59,875 bases of DNA from Actinomycetes bacterium. Lineage in GTDB: Bacteria; Actinomycetota; Acidimicrobiia; Acidimicrobiales; JAJYXR01. Numbering within the stretch: the stretch's first letter is position 1; the number at the start of each line of letters is the position of its first letter. Location: NCBI GenBank assembly GCA_021801525.1, contig JAJYXW010000159.1, positions 1 through 59,875 of the forward strand. The letters are read 5' to 3'. The notes under the pieces are model-generated. The model was not told where the DNA came from, ran no database searches, and saw nothing but the letters and a program-made list of their open reading frames with translations. Positions 3 to 59,875 of the stretch are shown here, one piece after another. The translations under genes were made by a program, and so were the position numbers.

Positions 3-95
3 GAGTGCATGGCTCCCTGTGGCACCGGGGCCGACGGCATGGGTGGCCCGATGGCTACCCCCGGCTGGATGCGCGGCACCCTGACGGTGGCCTGA
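3..95 (+). CDS. 3' end of a cupredoxin-like protein (partial), paralog of the next gene
   Basis: Frame from nt 3 reads ECMAPCGTGADGMGGPMATPGWMRGTLTVA*, which aligns with the C-terminus of 97..849 (QCYAPCGTGMNAMGGAMSTMGWMEGKVTVLA). Confidence 0.8.
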   Translation, partial: ECMAPCGTGADGMGGPMATPGWMRGTLTVA

Positions 96-10983: not shown

Positions 10984-12153
10984 ATGCCGGTGAAAGCTCA
11001 TTCCCGTGACTACAAGGTTGTGTCCACCGACGACCACGTCGTCGAGCCGCCAGACGTCTGGCAGTCGCGCCTGCCTTCTCACCTGGCAGAACGCGGCCCG
11101 AAGATAGTCTCTACCGAAGATGCCGACGTATGGGAGATCGCGGGGTCGCGCCACCCGATAAGCGGGCTGGCGGCAATGGCCGGGCGATCCTTCGAGGAGT
11201 ACACGCCGAAGGCCCTCCATTTCGCCGACATGCGCCCGGGCTGCTACGACCCGGCAGCGCGCCTCGAGGACATGGACCTTGACGGCGTCGACGCGGAGGT
11301 GATGTTCGGCACCATCGCAGGCCTCGCCGGCGGCACTTTCATAGAGCTTGCGGAGAAGGAGGAGGAGCTCGCGCTCGAGTGTGTGCGCGCCTACAACGAC
11401 TGGCTGGCCACCGAGTGGTGCGCGACGGATCCGGAACGGCTGATCGCTCAGGCCATCCTGCCCTTGTGGGACTCCGGGCTGGCAGCGGAGGAGGTCGAGC
11501 GCGCCGTTGAGATCGGGCATCGCGGGGTGCTCGTCCCTGCCATTCCGCAGGCATTCGGTCTGCCGCCGCTGGCCGATCCCGTCTATGCCCCGGTGCTCGA
11601 CGCGTGCCAGGCGGCGGGCGTGCCCGTGGCGCTCCACATCGGAGGCTCGATTGCCCGCAAGCAGGCGGCCGAGCTCATAGGCGGGTTGACCCCCGGCGCG
11701 GGCGTACCGGCGGAAACGATCGTCGCTCTCACGCCCCTGGGCAACTTCGGCGTCTTCGCGAACGTGATCTTCTCGGGGATCCCGGTCCGTCACCCCGGGT
11801 TGAAGATCGTCTCGGTGGAGAGCGGCATCGGTTGGGTGCCGTACTTCCTCGAGCGGATGGACTGGACCTACACGCGGCATCGCTTCTGGACCAAGTCGGC
11901 GCTCACCGAGCCGCCGAGCACCTACTTCCGTCGCCAGATGTACGCAACCTTCCTCGTGGACGACAGCGGGATCGAGGCCATCGAGCGCATAGGTGCCGAG
12001 AACGTCATGTGGGAGTCGGACTACCCGCATACCGACACCACCTGGCCCAAGTCGCAGGAGCTGATCGAAGAGCACCTGGGAGGCCTCCCGGACGCCATCC
12101 GCCACGCCGTGCTGGCGGGCAACGCCGTACGCGTCTACGGGCTCGGCTCCTGA
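10984..12153 (+). CDS. Amidohydrolase_2 family metal-dependent hydrolase
   Basis: STDDHVVEP, RLEDMDLDGVDAEV, ALHIG, VESGIGWVP and MWESDYPH motifs. Confidence 0.9.
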   Translation: MPVKAHSRDYKVVSTDDHVVEPPDVWQSRLPSHLAERGPKIVSTEDADVWEIAGSRHPISGLAAMAGRSFEEYTPKALHFADMRPGCYDPAARLEDMDLDGVDAEVMFGTIAGLAGGTFIELAEKEEELALECVRAYNDWLATEWCATDPERLIAQAILPLWDSGLAAEEVERAVEIGHRGVLVPAIPQAFGLPPLADPVYAPVLDACQAAGVPVALHIGGSIARKQAAELIGGLTPGAGVPAETIVALTPLGNFGVFANVIFSGIPVRHPGLKIVSVESGIGWVPYFLERMDWTYTRHRFWTKSALTEPPSTYFRRQMYATFLVDDSGIEAIERIGAENVMWESDYPHTDTTWPKSQELIEEHLGGLPDAIRHAVLAGNAVRVYGLGS

Positions 12154-56764: not shown

Positions 56765-57039
56765 GTTGGAGCAGCGAGCGTCACAGGCTCCAGGTAGCGT
56801 TGACAGTGATCGGATCACGCTGGTGATCCCCCTCGACCGCCGGCTGCTCGTGCCCGGGTGGGCCGGATCGGTCACTCGCCCCTAGTACTGGGGTCTCAGT
56901 GATCGCTTACCTGGCAGGGCGTCGTCCGGGTAGCTGCAAGTCCCTAGGCATGGCGACGGCTGTGCGCTTCGGGCCGCGCCGCGCCCTTGCCCTGCCTCGT
57001 TGGGTGCATCACGTTCGCACCAGATGGAGGGAGCAGGAG

Positions 57040-57855
57040 ATGACCGTCAGGAACAATCACCCAGAGCTCGTCGAGAAGTTGGCAGAGGGGATCGCGAACC
57101 TCACCTCGACTGATCAGTGGCAGCGCTACCTCGACTTCCAGAGCCGGTTCCACCGCTACAGCTTCGGGAACGTCCTATTGATCGCCGCCCAGTGCCACGA
57201 GGCGACGCAGGTGGCGGGCTTCAATGCGTGGCGGAAGATGAACCGCTTCGTCCGCAAGGGAGAGAAGGCCATCTTCGTGCTCGCCCCGATGGTCTACAAG
57301 TTCGCCGATACCGACAGCGGCGAGAACGATCGGGTGATCCGTGGGTTCAAGTTCGTGCCGGTGTTCGACGTCGCCCAGACCGACGGCGAAGAGCTGCCTT
57401 CCGTCTGCAGGCGGCTCGACGGTGACGATACCGGAGGGCACTACAGCCAACTCCTCGGTGTTGCCCAGTCCCTCGGATTCAAAGTGGTGGACCAGGAGCT
57501 CGACGGATCCACCAACGGCGATTGCGACCACGCCGAGCGCCGCATCCGGGTCGAGGTACGGAACACTCCCGCCCAGCGATTGAAGACGCTCGCTCACGAG
57601 ATCGCCCATGCACTTCTCCACGAGACCTTCGACAGCCGCCCCGTCGCAGAGCTGGAGGCGGAGTCCGCTGCCTACGTCGTCTGCCAGTCGCTCGGGGTCG
57701 ACACGAGCGACTACTCCTTCGGGTACGTGGCATCCTGGGCTGGCGGCGGCGACCGGGCGATCGCCGGGATCAAGGCGTCCTGCGAGCGTATCCAGAGGGC
57801 AGCAGCGACGATCCTCTGTGCTTTCGAGCCTGTCGAACGCGAGGAGGCAGCATGA
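57040..57855 (+). CDS. ArdC-like ssDNA-binding protein with an ImmA/IrrE-type metallopeptidase domain
   Basis: RFHRYSFGNVLLIAAQ, VAGFNAW...VRKGEKAI, VFDVAQTDG, TLAHEIAH, ELEAESAAY and SFGYVASW motifs. Confidence 0.88.
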   Translation: MTVRNNHPELVEKLAEGIANLTSTDQWQRYLDFQSRFHRYSFGNVLLIAAQCHEATQVAGFNAWRKMNRFVRKGEKAIFVLAPMVYKFADTDSGENDRVIRGFKFVPVFDVAQTDGEELPSVCRRLDGDDTGGHYSQLLGVAQSLGFKVVDQELDGSTNGDCDHAERRIRVEVRNTPAQRLKTLAHEIAHALLHETFDSRPVAELEAESAAYVVCQSLGVDTSDYSFGYVASWAGGGDRAIAGIKASCERIQRAAATILCAFEPVEREEAA

Positions 57856-58169
57856 GCTGGGTGCGCGACCGTGAGCTCGAGGATGCGATCTTCGAGCAGC
57901 TATCCCGGGTTGCAGCGTCAACCGGCCCGTCGTCAACCGGCCCGTCGTCGTCCGGCCCGTCGTCAACGGGCCCGCTTGGCGCGGCGTCCGCCCGGGGGCG
58001 CTTCGAGCCCCACGTCACGGCAAGGCACATGAAGGATCGGCCTCTACTTGTCACCTCGACGCTTTGGCTGCGTGCGATCACTCACTGCTCGCGGACGAGG
58101 ATGGAGCAGATCACGTCCTCGGGGCAGGCTGCTGGATCGACCGAGTCTGCGTGTCGGAGCAGCCCCTGA
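57852..58169 (+). CDS. Possible short or remnant ORF coupled to the ArdC-like gene
   Basis: ATGA overlap and GAGGAGG RBS, but it contains a 15-bp repeat and runs into the convergent MerR gene. Confidence 0.3.
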   Translation: MSWVRDRELEDAIFEQLSRVAASTGPSSTGPSSSGPSSTGPLGAASARGRFEPHVTARHMKDRPLLVTSTLWLRAITHCSRTRMEQITSSGQAAGSTESACRSSP

Positions 58170-58483
58170 AGCTCGCGCTTTGCCGCCCGTAGCTCGGCGA
58201 GCCGGGCGTCGATCTGCTCGAGGTGGTGGTGGAGGAGGTTCTGGACATGCACACACGGGGCTCGGCCCTCCGAGCGAATGGCAAGGACCTGGGCTATCTC
58301 CCGCAGCGTCAGACCCGCCGACCGGGCGTGCTGCACGAAGTGCAGGCGCTGTGCCGCGTCCGTGCCGTAGGAGCGGTAGCCGTTCGCTTCCCGTTCCGGC
58401 GCTGCGAGCAACCCGATCTGTTCGTAGTACCGGATCGTCTTTGTCGGGAAACCCGTGACATCCGCCAGCTCGCCGATCTGCAT
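58082..58483 (-). CDS. MerR family heavy-metal-responsive regulator
   Basis: MQIGELA...TIRYYEQIGLL...NGYRSY; Cys ligands in PCVHV and ACPEDVIC; GGAGG RBS. Confidence 0.93.
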   Translation of the reverse strand: MQIGELADVTGFPTKTIRYYEQIGLLAAPEREANGYRSYGTDAAQRLHFVQHARSAGLTLREIAQVLAIRSEGRAPCVHVQNLLHHHLEQIDARLAELRAAKRELQGLLRHADSVDPAACPEDVICSILVREQ

Positions 58484-58494
58484 GCGATACCTCC

Positions 58495-58526
58495 TTGACC
58501 TTCCACCCTGATGGAAGGTTTACCCT
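58495..58526 (+). promoter_or_regulatory. MerR-type promoter/operator
   Basis: TTGACC - 20 bp - TACCCT with dyad ACCTTCCA-N6-TGGAAGGT overlapping the spacer. Confidence 0.85.
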
Positions 58527-58545
58527 CAGTGTAGGAGGTATCACC

Positions 58546-58860
58546 ATGAACGTAACCGTCTTGTACATCGACGGCTGCCCGAACCTGGAGCCACTCTTGG
58601 CCGAGCTGGACGACCTGCTTGCTGACCGGGCCGGTACCGTCGTCACTTCGACCATCGTCCGCACCGAGGACGAGGCTCGGCGCCTCGGCTTCCATGGGTC
58701 GCCAACCGTGCTCGTGGACGGGCGCGACCCTTTCCCCGCGCCGTCTGGGCCGGTCGGTCTGTCGTGTCGTCAGTACCCGTGCTGCAGCGAAGACGGTGGG
58801 CGAGTGCCTGGGTTTCCGTCGCGGGCGAGGCTGGCAGAGGTGCTAGGGCTCACCGCCTGA
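58546..58860 (+). CDS. Thioredoxin-like small protein of the type found beside mer genes
   Basis: AGGAGG RBS; LYIDGCPN, FHGSPTVLVDGRDPF and LSCRQY motifs. Confidence 0.8.
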   Translation: MNVTVLYIDGCPNLEPLLAELDDLLADRAGTVVTSTIVRTEDEARRLGFHGSPTVLVDGRDPFPAPSGPVGLSCRQYPCCSEDGGRVPGFPSRARLAEVLGLTA

Positions 58861-58995
58861 CAGGGAGACGGGGTCGTCAGGTAGGGGAGACCGTCGAGCC
58901 ACATCCCTTCGATGTCGGCGCGGCTCGGCGTTACGGACGAGCACGCGGTTCGCGCCCGTTCTGATCGCCAATGCGAAGGCACAGGTCAGGATCCA

Positions 58996-59023
58996 GGTGG
59001 GCCGTAGTCACTCGTATTCGAAC
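58996..59023. repeat. 28-bp direct repeat, copy 1 (candidate recombination site, tRNA-3'-end-like on the minus strand)
   Basis: GGTGGGCCGTAGTCACTCGTATTCGAAC; 27/28 identical to 59698-59725. Confidence 0.9.
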
Positions 59024-59083
59024 CTCGACGACGTCTGGAGACGTCTCGCCTGCAGGCTCCCCCGCGGTGATATAGTCTTAGTT

Positions 59084-59374
59084 ATGGTCACTTCTGCTTC
59101 CGAACAGGTCTCCCTGGCCGATGCCAAGGCACGTCTGTCCGAGGTCGTCGAAGGGATCGAGACCGAGCACCGTCGGGTGGTTATCACCAAGCACGGCCGC
59201 CCGAGCGTGGTAGTGCTCGCGGTCGAGGACCTCGAGGCGCTCGAAGATACGCTCGACGTACTGTCGGATGCCGACGCGATGGCCGACCTCCGGGAGGCGG
59301 CAACCGCTCGGCGAACCGGCCAGACGATCGAGCTGACCAAGGAGGCCGCGGTCGCCCGCTGGTCGCGTGGATGA
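59084..59374 (+). CDS. Phd/YefM family antitoxin
   Basis: SLADAKARLSEVV, VVITKHGRP and LEALEDTLDVLSD motifs; TGnTATAGT extended -10 just upstream (probably leaderless). Confidence 0.92.
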   Translation: MVTSASEQVSLADAKARLSEVVEGIETEHRRVVITKHGRPSVVVLAVEDLEALEDTLDVLSDADAMADLREAATARRTGQTIELTKEAAVARWSRG

Positions 59375-59645
59375 GTATGGCCTCCGGTGGTCGCCGCCCG
59401 CAGTTCGCCAACTCGACCATCTCGCGAAATCCTCGCCACGTGTCGTGGGCGCAGTCGTCGAGTTCTGCTTCGGACGCCTGATCGCCAACCCGCACCGAAT
59501 CGGTCATCCTCTAGGACGGGAGCTCGAAGGCTGGTACAGCGCGCGTGTCGGGGCGTATCGCGTCATCTACTGGATCGACGAAGACGAGCGCGTCGTCTAC
59601 GTCGACCGAGTCGACCATCGAAGCGACGTCTACCGTCCGAAGTGA
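59367..59645 (+). CDS. RelE/ParE family toxin
   Basis: NPHRIGHPLGRELEGWYSARVGAYRVIY...VDHRSDVYR; overlaps the antitoxin stop. Confidence 0.92.
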   Translation: MDEYGLRWSPPAVRQLDHLAKSSPRVVGAVVEFCFGRLIANPHRIGHPLGRELEGWYSARVGAYRVIYWIDEDERVVYVDRVDHRSDVYRPK

Positions 59646-59697
59646 GCATGTCCACCGGGCTCTCACGGGCCGAATAGCGACGCAAGGCCTCCTCGCT

Positions 59698-59725
59698 GGT
59701 GGGCCGTAGTCGCTCGTATTCGAAC
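59698..59725. repeat. 28-bp direct repeat, copy 2
   Basis: GGTGGGCCGTAGTCGCTCGTATTCGAAC. Confidence 0.9.
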
Positions 59726-59771
59726 TCCGATGACATGCGGCAAACTCAAAGTGCTCGAGCCCGCTCAGGAG

Positions 59772-59791
59772 ATGATGTAAGCTTACATCAT
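59772..59791. promoter_or_regulatory. Perfect 20-bp palindrome, probable autoregulatory operator
   Basis: ATGATGTAAG|CTTACATCAT overlapping ATG 59790. Confidence 0.75.
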
Positions 59792-59875
59792 GCAGCGGAC
59801 TCAGATCTCTTTGACCGACGAGGAGCGGCGTGCCCTGGATGCCGCCGCGCTGCGGACTGGTCGATCGCTCTCATC
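59790..59875 (+). CDS. Ribbon-helix-helix (CopG/VapB-like) protein, probable antitoxin (partial)
   Basis: Translates MQRTQISLTDEERRALDAAALRTGRSLS..., an RHH pattern; runs off the window and is not in the ORF track. Confidence 0.7.
   Translation, partial: MQRTQISLTDEERRALDAAALRTGRSLS

Follow-up and report, generated by a model that had tools for sequence, protein, structure and literature searches.

What does a 28-nucleotide repeat do in front of two unrelated toxin-antitoxin (TA) modules, and how did such modules come to lie side by side? This question is raised by the right-hand end of a contig from an Acidimicrobiales bacterium (GCA_021801525.1, JAJYXW010000159.1), which we analyzed over its full length of 59,875 nucleotides, referred to here as the window, and which carries the 28-mer GGTGGGCCGTAGTC(A/G)CTCGTATTCGAAC twice on the forward strand, the two copies being identical at 27 of 28 positions and spaced 702 bp apart. 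A sequence-only reading of this DNA had described a repeat pair enclosing one TA module, and our analysis bears this out: allowing up to three mismatches, the 28-mer matches the window twice, versus no match in 100 dinucleotide-preserving shuffles, and the interval between the copies consists of one Phd/ParE module. All of the genomes that we used, including this one, are metagenome assemblies.

Repeat pair and the two cassettes of the window

The features of the locus are collected in Table 1, in which each copy of the 28-mer is called a core. A weak likeness between the two copies runs on to about position +45 (89% identity over 37 nt). The start codon of the first antitoxin gene lies 60 nt past core copy 1, and an unrelated RHH antitoxin-like gene with its own operator had been noted after core copy 2, where we find an RHH_1-like open reading frame 64 nt downstream together with the palindrome GATGTAAGCTTACATC. 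Since the window is the whole contig, the array is cut 150 bp past copy 2, and no other contig of the same genome overlaps the window end. The junction of the U element, core copy 1 and phd is bridged by independent assemblies of other studies in X2 and X3, and the junction of parE, core copy 2 and the RHH gene by independent assemblies in X1, X2 and X5, which shows that the arrangement of the repeat is not an assembly artefact of this genome.

Table 1. Features of the window around the two copies of the 28-mer
Feature	Position	Strand	Description
U element	58935..58995	+	Conserved ~60 nt directly left of core 1; hairpin (GTTCGC..GCGAA); ends GG; left arm of junction 1
Core copy 1	58996..59023	+	P′ half-site, by its anatomy, of LSR attP; mimics reverse complement of tRNA-Val 3′ end; start of cassette 1
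LSR C-terminal tail-codon remnant, cassette 1	58997..59056	+	Frame GTG GGC CGT.. = VGRSHSYSNLDDVWRRL..
Phd/YefM-family antitoxin, cassette 1	59084..59374	+	PF02604 (PhdYeFM), E 2.2e-18
ParE/RelE-family toxin, cassette 1	59367..59645	+	PF05016, E 1.7e-12
Right arm of cassette 1 (L-type)	59646..59697	+	CCGAATAG at 59670-59677, short GC-rich stem, then ..CGCTGG
Core copy 2	59698..59725	+	P′ half-site, by its anatomy; start of cassette 2
Tail-codon remnant, cassette 2, and operator-like palindrome	59699..59789	+	Palindrome at 59774-59789
RHH (CopG-like) antitoxin gene, 5′ part, cassette 2	59790..59875	+	RHH_1 E 0.0017 on 28 aa, below Pfam cut-off; cut by contig end

Several parts of the two cassettes recur elsewhere. 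Copies of the U element, 75-83% identical, lie left of the cores at C173:36971 and C187:6016, another copy lies directly against tRNA-Val(TAC) at C173:40672-40740, and the element is also present in L035, L081 and L036. The tail remnant of cassette 1 contains the inverted repeat GACGTCT-GG-AGACGTC at 59030-59045. The L-type right arm of cassette 1 is found behind the same parE gene in L098, L070 and L058 and, more diverged, in L049, where it is joined to three different cores, to tRNA-Val(TAC) or to tRNA-like sequence. Among the L-type arms listed, 9 of 23 have TTCGAATAG beginning 32 nt before GGGCC, versus 20 nt in the LSR-encoded arm.

The second cassette is 91-95% identical over 59697-59875 to RHH/PIN cassettes in L106, L074, L076 and L110, and in the cassettes homologous to it a PIN toxin gene comes after the RHH gene. 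Its tail frame leaves that of its homologues (L074, L106 and L076, with S(D/P)DVR(Q/K)RL(E/Q)(A/V)LE(S/P)AQEMM*) past about 59743, and contigs of other runs carry one or two extra letters at 59743/59744. The X3 contig runs past 59875 and carries another core-like 37-mer, and its joint that goes back 880 is best read as a further core past the contig end. In the contigs of four runs from four studies that cover 57500-59875, where rare forms would be invisible, neither a 702-bp circle nor an empty site was seen; the X2 joint that skips 674 was discounted as an empty site, since one of its sides has only 26 nt, all inside the repeat.

Searches against known elements gave no match. ARAGORN found no tRNA in the window, Rfam at E values up to 1 gave no match on 57500-59875 or on the C1 flank, and blastn of 58990-59060 against known plasmid and phage collections found no match in either. 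With no cloverleaf by ARAGORN and no Rfam match, we rejected the reading of the repeat as an RNA gene or a tRNA-like RNA. We also rejected the end of an IS or MITE, since the core and the right arm, which form the ends of the Phd/ParE unit, do not resemble each other, six aligned copies of the unit lack a flanking duplication, and insertion is always at the same tRNA-type sequence; the repeat is thus no IS or MITE end, and it is no CRISPR repeat and no attC, as the sequence-only reading had judged.

Site anatomy and linkage to a large serine recombinase

No gene for a large serine recombinase (LSR) is present in the window itself. Another contig of the same genome, C1, encodes a full LSR of 531 aa at C1:4622-6217 on the reverse strand, containing the domains PF00239 (Resolvase), PF07508 (Recombinase) and PF13408 (Zn_ribbon_recom), and this is the sole full close LSR of the genome. 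Its end, ..TTCGAATACGGCGATGTGG|TGGGCCGTAGAGGACTCGAACC, runs into tRNA-Val(GAC) on the opposite strand, and a copy of the core lies 7 kb away at 11750-11777. The junctions P|tRNA-Val(GAC) at ~4700 and x|core at 11750-11777 are hybrid sites flanking an integrated element, the interval between them encoding the LSR, a Replic_Relax protein and a DNA methylase. A three-domain LSR with its 3′ end as the left arm of the site is present in C1, in 17 metagenome loci and in most of 80 database homologues.

In C73, L074 and L186 the same LSR 3′ end is joined to a core, giving the dyad-symmetric site TTCGAATACG-24 nt-CGTATTCGAA. This attP of ~50 bp has imperfect inverted-repeat arms, and its geometric centre in these three loci is the GG of GGTG[GG]CC; we infer the crossover, and its exact dinucleotide, to lie within GGTGG(G). 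The motif TTCGAAC occupies +17..23 in the P and P′ arms, versus CTCGAAC at +12..18 in the tRNA (B′) arm. In the excerpted text of PMC3783163, an outer (zinc-ribbon) motif that lies 5 bp closer to the centre in attB than in attP is the rule for LSRs, and this shift accounts for the observation that the repeat resembles a tRNA end yet is “5 nt too long”: with its outer motif 5 bp farther out than in the tRNA, it matches the geometry of an attP half-site. The half-site copies the tRNA acceptor end (GGTGGGCCGTAG), with core and tRNA identical over 13 nt (Val-GAC) or 5 nt (Ala-CGC) and then diverging with the 5-bp offset. By this anatomy, the 28-mer represents the P′ half-site in the attP of an Acidimicrobiales LSR family, and it includes the opening codons of a short conserved tail.

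The linkage between core and LSR extends beyond this genome. Close LSR homologues (at least 64% identity) are present in 4 of the 7 core-bearing genomes, with a remnant in a fifth, and in 1 of 54 core-less genomes. Among 17 metagenome matches to the LSR arm, 14 adjoin tRNA 3′ ends (matched by eye), two adjoin degraded tRNA-like sequence and one adjoins a core. The targets of this LSR family are tRNA-Val with anticodons GAC, CAC and TAC, as well as tRNA-Tyr, tRNA-Leu and tRNA-Ala, and insertion is antisense at the 3′ end.

The left side of the core is far less uniform. There is no conservation left of position 1 (entropy ~1.8-2.0 bits), and a search for a recombinase-type inverted motif found GTTCG within 60 nt in 36 of 125 left flanks versus 13 of 125 controls; because most left flanks lack it, most junctions look one-armed. 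Nine loci whose divergent cores were judged to be chance or other-phylum matches (L038, L048, L090, L091, L092, L096, L144, L148 and L158), were omitted from the left-flank counts and from the conservation and tail-frame counts. Right arms fall into several classes. A conserved flank, ..GACCAG..GGACTCTCGCGAAATT.., was considered as the chromosomal B arm of attB and rejected, since it is the right arm of a cassette with unknown cargo (L034, L103 and C1).

Units form arrays and are modular

The sequence-only reading had expected further copies with different cargo, and we identified six copies of the core in this genome, with the core present in 7 of 61 related genomes and on at least 128 public contigs, each copy preceding different cargo, mostly TA modules. 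Arrays ending at a serine recombinase and/or at a tRNA 3′ end (..ACGGCCCACCA, that of tRNA-Val(GAC)), also anticipated, are seen in C1, L022, L160 and L095. Among 43 closed units, the unit runs up to another core in 21 cases and to an antisense tRNA in 22 (tRNA-Val in 17, tRNA-Tyr in four and tRNA-Leu in one). TA families are present in 34 of these units by hand tally, with the operons in either orientation relative to the core; LSR remnants are present in three, and none in the remaining units. Between the three TA pairs of C173, searching with a profile turned up no degenerate core.

The units are modular, in that cassette order and neighbours vary between genomes, as predicted, with breakpoints located exactly at the repeat. 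Five other loci carry the Phd/ParE unit of the window, bounded by the same two ends but set among different neighbours. For example, L098 is 94.2% identical to it over 58996-59702 and has unrelated flanks, and L070 contains the RHH and Phd/ParE units in reversed order. In all, no left flank is shared among six copies of this unit, and no right partner among five. The same holds for at least seven other cassette families, which lie beside different tRNAs or cores. In addition, two genomes share an 861-bp cassette block at 99.3% identity, the LSR of one adjoining tRNA-Val(GAC) and that of the other tRNA-Ala(CGC).

Our preferred reading, to which we assign a probability of roughly two in three, is that the repeat represents the P′ half-site in the attP of a tRNA-targeting LSR, and that TA units without a recombinase of their own are stacked beside tRNA genes and exchanged whole, most likely in trans by such an LSR. 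In this reading, the LSRs integrate DNA antisense at tRNA 3′ ends; each TA unit of the window consists of a core, the remnant of a tail, a single TA operon under its own control region and a short right arm; and such recombinase-less units are stacked head to tail next to tRNA genes. Whole units would be exchanged, most likely in trans by an LSR like the intact one at the tRNA-Val(GAC) of C1, and each new insertion would probably reuse the tRNA half-site. That the LSR moves single cassettes, and how, we infer from the way these units are joined. Points that weigh against this reading are that canonical LSRs need a directionality factor for hybrid sites (see below), yet most junctions look one-armed; that neither a circle nor an empty junction turned up in the contigs; that the contig ends before any tRNA or recombinase of the window's array; and that decay of LSR elements contributes to the pattern.

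An alternative that we consider unlikely is that the units are fossil scars, i.e., that integration of a complete LSR-bearing element at a tRNA gene left each core behind as its attL, that later deletions spared only the addictive TA module, and that single cassettes are immobile and arrays are graveyards. Decayed LSR elements do occur among array members (L076, L095 and L022), with truncated LSR genes fused directly to core and tail inside arrays (L160/L076, L095 and L022), and, relative to G064, the genome G062 has lost 4,048 bp internally, comprising cargo and half of the LSR; such plainly decayed elements indicate that decay contributes to the pattern. Tail codons behind every core are also the expected leftover of a former whole element. 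In addition, canonical LSRs act on hybrid sites of the attL or attR kind only if a directionality factor is present, according to the excerpted text of PMC3783163, and this directionality forbids reactions on attL-like sites. The modularity described above, however, argues against scars: both ends of the Phd/ParE unit are kept exactly in six genomes while the neighbours differ on both sides and the order is once reversed, and the other cassette families behave likewise. Independent deletions should moreover leave LSR-arm remnants of variable length left of the cores, and such remnants are seen in only a few (C73, L074, L125 and L103).

Homologous recombination is a yet less probable source of the pattern. 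Here the 28-60 bp of core and tail would serve as portable homology for RecA-dependent swaps between arrays or with incoming DNA, the LSR having made only the first insertion. Cores and tails are indeed 85-100% identical over 30-60 bp between units, and breakpoints inside the repeat would look alike. The same right arm is, however, also joined directly to tRNA genes at GTGGGC, where identity to the core extends over only 5-13 bp, which is too short for RecA, and the absence of conservation left of position 1 confines exchange to a very short stretch.

The conserved tail and relation to known systems

In 125 of 126 cores the tail frame stays open for 20 codons or more, conservation with a period of three extends to about +61, and LSR genes in the attP state end in this same frame. 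Among 66 LSR homologues that carry an FEY motif near the end, eight end in frame with the tail (three clear and five variant) and 44 have tRNA-antisense tails. The LSR gene spans attP, so that its last ~25 codons are those of the conserved tail following the core when in the attP state, and tRNA-antisense codons once integrated. The open frame and its periodic conservation could also mark a small conserved gene, i.e., a peptide or leader of 22-29 aa (VGRRHSYSN.DVR.RL..L..) that heads TA operons and is unrelated to recombination. We regard this as very improbable, since the unconserved upstream stretch holds no conserved promoter or ribosome-binding sequence, the frame continues LSR genes, the DNA mimics a tRNA end and replaces one at LSR junctions, and the TA operons lie in either orientation relative to the frame.

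Serine integrases are prized as tools because of their short sites and one-way reaction. A bolder version of our reading, which we offer tentatively and regard as possible but rather doubtful, is that the arrays represent an undescribed gene-cassette system of Acidimicrobiales built on an LSR and tRNA 3′ ends, in which TA or defence cassettes of a single operon, marked only by the P′ half-site, are captured, stacked and permuted beside tRNA-Val, tRNA-Tyr, tRNA-Leu and tRNA-Ala. The right half-site of each partner would suffice for the enzyme, and a switch of the ~25-residue tail, between a conserved amphipathic tail supplied by the core of the following unit and a tRNA-antisense tail, could set direction without a separate directionality factor. 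If true, there would be a natural LSR family that is directed to tRNA ends, accepts nearly any left arm and produces arrays, which would widen the view of these enzymes; integron- or SCC-like cassette stacking would have arisen independently in an uncultured actinobacterial order; and the spread of TA and defence modules among acid-mine and soil Acidimicrobiales would be explained. The 28-mer antisense to a tRNA would serve as an annotation marker for such islands, and the exchange of tails across attP offers a hypothesis, open to experiment, for how direction is controlled.

Integrons use the tyrosine recombinase IntI, an attI site and folded attC sites with the core sites RYYYAAC..GTTRRRY, and chromosomal superintegrons contain TA cassettes. 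Like integron cassettes, the Acidimicrobiales units form arrays of single operons with one recombination site each and TA modules as frequent cargo; the enzyme differs in being a serine recombinase, the site in being a double-stranded half-site and not a folded attC, and the arrays in having no common promoter and cassettes in both orientations. A true integron, with folded single-stranded attC-like sites and an IntI-type tyrosine recombinase, is hardly credible, because, despite the tandem small cassettes with one site each and some right arms that form a short hairpin beside inverted TTCGAATA, the enzyme to which the site is physically fused belongs to the serine recombinases, the core lacks attC core sites (..TTCGAAC, whose reverse complement GTTCGAA does not fit GTTRRRY), most units have no second inverted core site at a fixed distance, the cassettes carry their own control regions in both orientations, and the hairpin region is conserved in sequence (..CGACGTACGGTCTC..) and not only in pairing. 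Given this conservation of the stem region in sequence, the L-type right arms gained no support as folded single-stranded sites. The “integron-style” stacking by a site-specific recombinase proposed in the sequence-only reading therefore holds only as an analogy, whereas the kinship is with LSR systems, i.e., SCC-like tandem cassettes at a fixed chromosomal target.

The closest tested precedent for tandem LSR cassettes is SCCmec. As described in the excerpted text of PMC11470126, SCCmec and SCC composite islands of staphylococci, which include tandem cassettes without a recombinase, owe their insertion at the rlmH 3′ end to large serine recombinases of the Ccr type. In both systems, an LSR inserts at the 3′ end of a conserved gene, tandem cassettes are bounded by att sites and the cargo is enriched in defence or accessory genes; in SCC, recombinase-less cassettes are moved by a neighbour's enzyme, and we propose that the Acidimicrobiales units may resemble them in this. 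The systems differ in that the Acidimicrobiales target is tRNA 3′ ends and not rlmH, the units are far smaller (0.5-0.9 kb with one TA operon), the repeat is a tRNA-mimicking P′ half-site that also encodes an alternative C-terminus of the recombinase, and the host is uncultured.

The phage-type LSRs phiC31, Bxb1 and A118/LI, as far as they are covered in the excerpt of PMC3783163, share with the Acidimicrobiales enzymes a three-domain structure, an attP of ~50 bp with dyad symmetry, an attB outer motif 5 bp closer to the centre and hybrid attL/attR sites flanking the element (here in C1). The Acidimicrobiales LSRs differ in targeting tRNA genes, and several tRNA species, in a left (B) arm that seems barely constrained, in repeated insertion at one target that gives rise to arrays, and in having attP inside the recombinase gene.

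Tycheposons (bioRxiv 10.1101/2020.12.28.424599) and Islander islands (PMC4383910), in the portions of these sources that we draw on, are alike in that each new insertion at a given tRNA displaces earlier elements outward, the units are set apart by partial tRNA-like repeats, and degenerate elements build up. Their repeats, however, are true tRNA fragments and not a mimic shifted by 5 bp, and their units are kilobases long with an integrase of their own; these islands rely almost exclusively on tyrosine recombinases (910 of 937 tycheposons), whereas the recombinase here is a serine recombinase. The pdif modules of Acinetobacter plasmids, as outlined in the excerpt of PMC13141974, are likewise small, frequently comprise a TA pair, have 28-bp recombination sites at their boundaries and move between replicons by shuffling, but their sites are XerC/XerD sites of alternating orientation on plasmids, whereas the Acidimicrobiales sites are direct repeats at chromosomal tRNA genes and are linked to an LSR.

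A precedent for the gene-spanning site is the integration-dependent immunity of mycobacteriophage BPs, in which, according to the excerpted text of PMC4557955, attP lies inside a gene and integration alters the C-terminus of the protein; the gene there is a repressor gene and the integrase belongs to the tyrosine family, whereas here the gene is the serine recombinase's own. An LSR gene that spans attP would also explain the odd “..VGRRGLEPLT..” C-termini of many predicted recombinases.

Toxin-antitoxin units bounded by a 28-mer

In the window, which is the whole of contig C177 in a genome of 3.38 Mb in 193 contigs (68% G+C), the 28-mer GGTGGGCCGTAGTC(A/G)CTCGTATTCGAAC, here termed the core, has two matches at up to 3 mismatches, spaced 702 bp apart, vs. 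none in 100 shuffles, which confirms the pair enclosing one toxin-antitoxin (TA) module described in the sequence-only reading. No tRNA is present in the window, and no Rfam family matched around the repeats. Both core junctions are spanned by contigs of sequencing runs from other studies, demonstrating that this arrangement of TA genes and cores is real. One contig, from run X3, extends past the right end of the window and contains a further core-like 37-mer. In four metagenomes, contig depth summed across the first part of the RHH cassette (59740-59875) was 2 to 16 times that of neighbouring strain-specific DNA, as expected if this cassette occurs in many community members or contexts. The stretch directly left of the array (56899-58860) looks like mobile-element cargo, with no core to its left within the window. 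A tandem repeat of ~15 bp (..ccggcccgtcgtcaa..), one frame of which reads as STGPSS repeats, is located just past the ArdC-like gene. The U element, ~60 nt of conserved sequence including a hairpin (best copies, GTTCGCGC..GCGCGAAC), directly adjoins the left side of cores and, on contig C173, also that of tRNA-Val(TAC).

Features of the window and of other contigs (C numbers) of the same genome
Feature	Position	Remark
ArdC-N/IrrE-like protein	56899-57855	left of array
Tandem repeat	57919-57975	
MerR-family regulator	58082-58483	minus strand; left of array
Small Cys-rich ORF	58546-58860	left of array; no Pfam match
U element	58935-58995	
Core copy 1	58996-59023	
Phd/YefM antitoxin	59084-59374	between core copies
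ParE/RelE-family toxin	59367-59645	between core copies
Core copy 2	59698-59725	
RHH-type ORF	starts 64 nt past core copy 2	after 16-nt palindrome; cut by contig end
U element copies	C173:36971-37021, C173:40672-40740, C187:6016-6071	
tRNA-encoded tail	C1:4622-4701	predicted
attR (P|tRNA)	C1:~4700	
attL-type junction (x|core)	C1:11750-11777	
Right arm with T-arm-like stretch	C1:11778-11860	locus L009
ORF with C-terminal half of LSR	C174:774-1502	locus L010
Second LSR	C105:476-1963	

The further copies predicted from the window alone were found, with six in this genome (two in the window and one each on C173, C187, C1 and C73) and others in related genomes and public contigs. Scanning a single genome for each species gave at least 128 stretches with a core, and among the matches listed nearly all of these are labelled Acidimicrobiales, Acidimicrobiaceae or unclassified actinobacterial MAGs. 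After duplicate removal, the 139 core occurrences among the matches listed gave 43 closed units, i.e., segments of up to 4 kb that start at a core and extend to whichever core or antisense tRNA comes next. These end at another core (21), antisense tRNA-Val (17; CAC 7, GAC 6, TAC 4), tRNA-Tyr(GTA) (4) or tRNA-Leu(TAA) (1), and most are 477-890 bp long. By hand tally, 34 of the 43 contain TA families (Phd/ParE, Phd/PIN, RHH/PIN, TacA-like/PIN, HicAB, CcdA/MazF, MNT, AbiEii and DUF1778/GNAT), with operons in both orientations relative to the core, 3 contain truncated large serine recombinases (LSRs), and 6 have no Pfam match (E ≤0.001). For example, C173 carries a core, three TA pairs and tRNA-Val(TAC), and C73 carries tRNA-Val(CAC), VapBC, a core and an LSR fragment. 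One cassette of ~850 bp with no Pfam match has a right arm with a conserved T-arm-like stretch (..GGCAGTTCGAGTCCGGCAGGGAGTGCCC..), which ARAGORN and Rfam did not recognise and which is also present in public loci L034, L103, L057, L133 and L134.

The Phd/ParE unit is present in public locus L098 at 94.2% identity over 58996-59702, a span that begins exactly with the first base of core 1 and stops 5 nt inside core 2, with unrelated flanks, and in L070 (84.7%) together with the RHH unit (96%), in the order opposite to that in the window. Alignment of Phd/ParE unit ends showed GGTGGGCC abutted by six different left flanks, and a right arm (..TTCGAATAGcgacgcaagg..cgcgGGTGG) followed by three different cores, tRNA-Val(TAC) or tRNA-like sequence. 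Other cassette families, with 81-97% identity between units across no less than 80% of the shorter one, likewise have members lying by Val-CAC (L050) and Val-TAC (L164), by a core (L076) and tRNA-Tyr (L106), by Val-GAC (L034) and a core (L103), and by Val-CAC (C73) and a core (L054). Genomes G062 and G064 share an 861-bp block (core, RHH/PIN, core plus 50 nt) at 99.3% identity, with unrelated left flanks. Motif position 1 is an abrupt limit of conservation, with entropy of ~1.8-2.0 bits leftward, in a profile where positions 4-28 are partly fixed by the search pattern. The same units with different neighbours, and breakpoints at the core, uphold the earlier proposal of tandem TA cassettes bounded by the repeat; judged by these comparisons of sequence, the TA units behave as cassettes.

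Anatomy of the site and the recombinase C-terminus

On C73, a serine-recombinase fragment has its stop codon inside the motif. A full LSR of 531 aa (Resolvase, Recombinase and Zn_ribbon_recom domains) with the same 3′ end is present on C1, where the gene past GGTGGGCCGTAGA enters the reverse complement of tRNA-Val(GAC). This replacement of the gene end demonstrates that the motif (GGTGGGCCGTAGnCnCTCGTATTCGAAC when aligned with the tRNA, GGTGGGCCGTAGAGGACTCGAACC) is a look-alike of the antisense tRNA-Val 3′ end. The junction of the LSR 3′ end with the motif on C73 and in L074 and L186 forms a dyad-symmetric site, TTCGAATACG, 24 nt, CGTATTCGAA, centred on the GG of GGTG[GG]CC, with TTCGAAC at +17..23 from the centre in both arms; the tRNA arm has CTCGAAC at +12..18. 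In serine-integrase attB half-sites, the zinc-ribbon-domain motif was shown to lie 5 bp nearer the centre than in attP (Rutherford et al., PMC3783163), and this shift accounts for the tRNA-like end noted earlier as 5 nt too long. We thus assign the motif to the P′ arm of attP and the LSR 3′ end to the P arm, with the tRNA end as B′. The C1 element between attR and the attL-type junction is 7 kb and encodes the LSR, a replication-relaxation protein and a DNA methylase.

Conservation right of the core reaches ~+61 with period 3, in the frame G|GTG GGC CGT.., i.e., VGR(R/S)(H/R)SYSN(L/F)x(D/E)(V/L)RxR(L/V/I)xxL. In 125 of 126 cores, this frame has no stop within its first 20 codons, and the stop mostly follows after 21-29; the other two frames stay open that far in 4 and 100 of 126. 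It is the LSR frame, and L074 and L186 continue in it through attP to the tail. Of 80 LSR database homologues, 66 have an FEY motif near the end, and 44 of these have a tRNA-antisense tail (..G(L/F)EP..), since LSR frames traverse the tRNA antisense strand, with 3 tails clearly core-encoded, 5 variant core-encoded and 14 other. Predicted tRNA-encoded tails, e.g., ..VGRRGLEPLTPCASCKCATNCANGP, occur on C1 and among these homologues (P0001-P0080). The frame running through attP and the two tail types place attP inside the recombinase gene, where integration would swap the predicted last ~25 residues. The tail codons are conserved in cassettes with no recombinase as well.

Proposed mechanism and precedents

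We propose that an LSR, acting in trans, would insert units beside a tRNA whose half-site could be used again. Relatives vary widely in the natural flanks of their tRNA-Val(GAC), and several tRNAs are used, so that the left arm of the target seems loosely constrained; the tRNA-side junction could then accept the next unit, and multi-unit circles, excised and re-entering at another junction, would give permuted orders. Against this mechanism, canonical LSRs do not recombine hybrid sites unless a directionality factor is present (PMC3783163), GTTCG is present in only 36 of 125 left flanks among the matches listed (control 13 of 125), neither a circle nor an empty site appears in the contigs aligned to the array, decay is evident as truncated LSRs and a 4,048-bp deletion in G062, and the window's own array is truncated where the contig stops. 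The closest tested precedent is SCCmec, where Ccr LSRs are reported to excise defence cassettes that lie in tandem, have att sites at their ends and lack a recombinase (PMC11470126). Tyrosine recombinases are known to form tRNA-seeded islands with successive insertions, e.g., tycheposons, of which 910 of 937 are reported to use one (bioRxiv 10.1101/2020.12.28.424599). We found no paper on this system in a literature search confined largely to openly accessible journals, and no match to the site among known plasmid and phage records.

Linkage of the core to the recombinase

A metagenome scan for the P-arm pattern identified 17 loci, with the P arm joined to a tRNA 3′ end in 14 (by-eye assignments: Val-CAC 6, Val-TAC 2, Val-GAC 2, Tyr 1, Leu-TAA-like 3), to degraded tRNA-like sequence in 2, and in an intact attP in 1; LSR frames upstream of these arms are open up to 666 aa. 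In G064, the same LSR lineage adjoins tRNA-Ala(CGC), which has only GGTGG in common with the core. Across 61 genomes of the order, each from a different family or genus, the core (≤3 mismatches) is present in 7 and the reversed control pattern in none. LSR homologues of at least 64% identity are present in 4 of these 7, with a remnant in a fifth (G037), and in 1 of the 54 genomes without a core, counts that are descriptive only since kin are not independent.

In the ORF on C174, an unrelated N-terminal part is fused to sequence matching the LSR's C-terminal half (84-88% identity). Behind the ORF lies the 3′ portion of a tRNA-Val-like sequence not called by ARAGORN, and the locus is probably a rearranged, decayed element. 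A second LSR, on C105, with 44-46% identity to the C1 enzyme, enters tRNA-like antisense sequence (..GGTGGAGGTGAAGGGACTCGAACCC..), so that tRNA targeting may be wider within this LSR clade.
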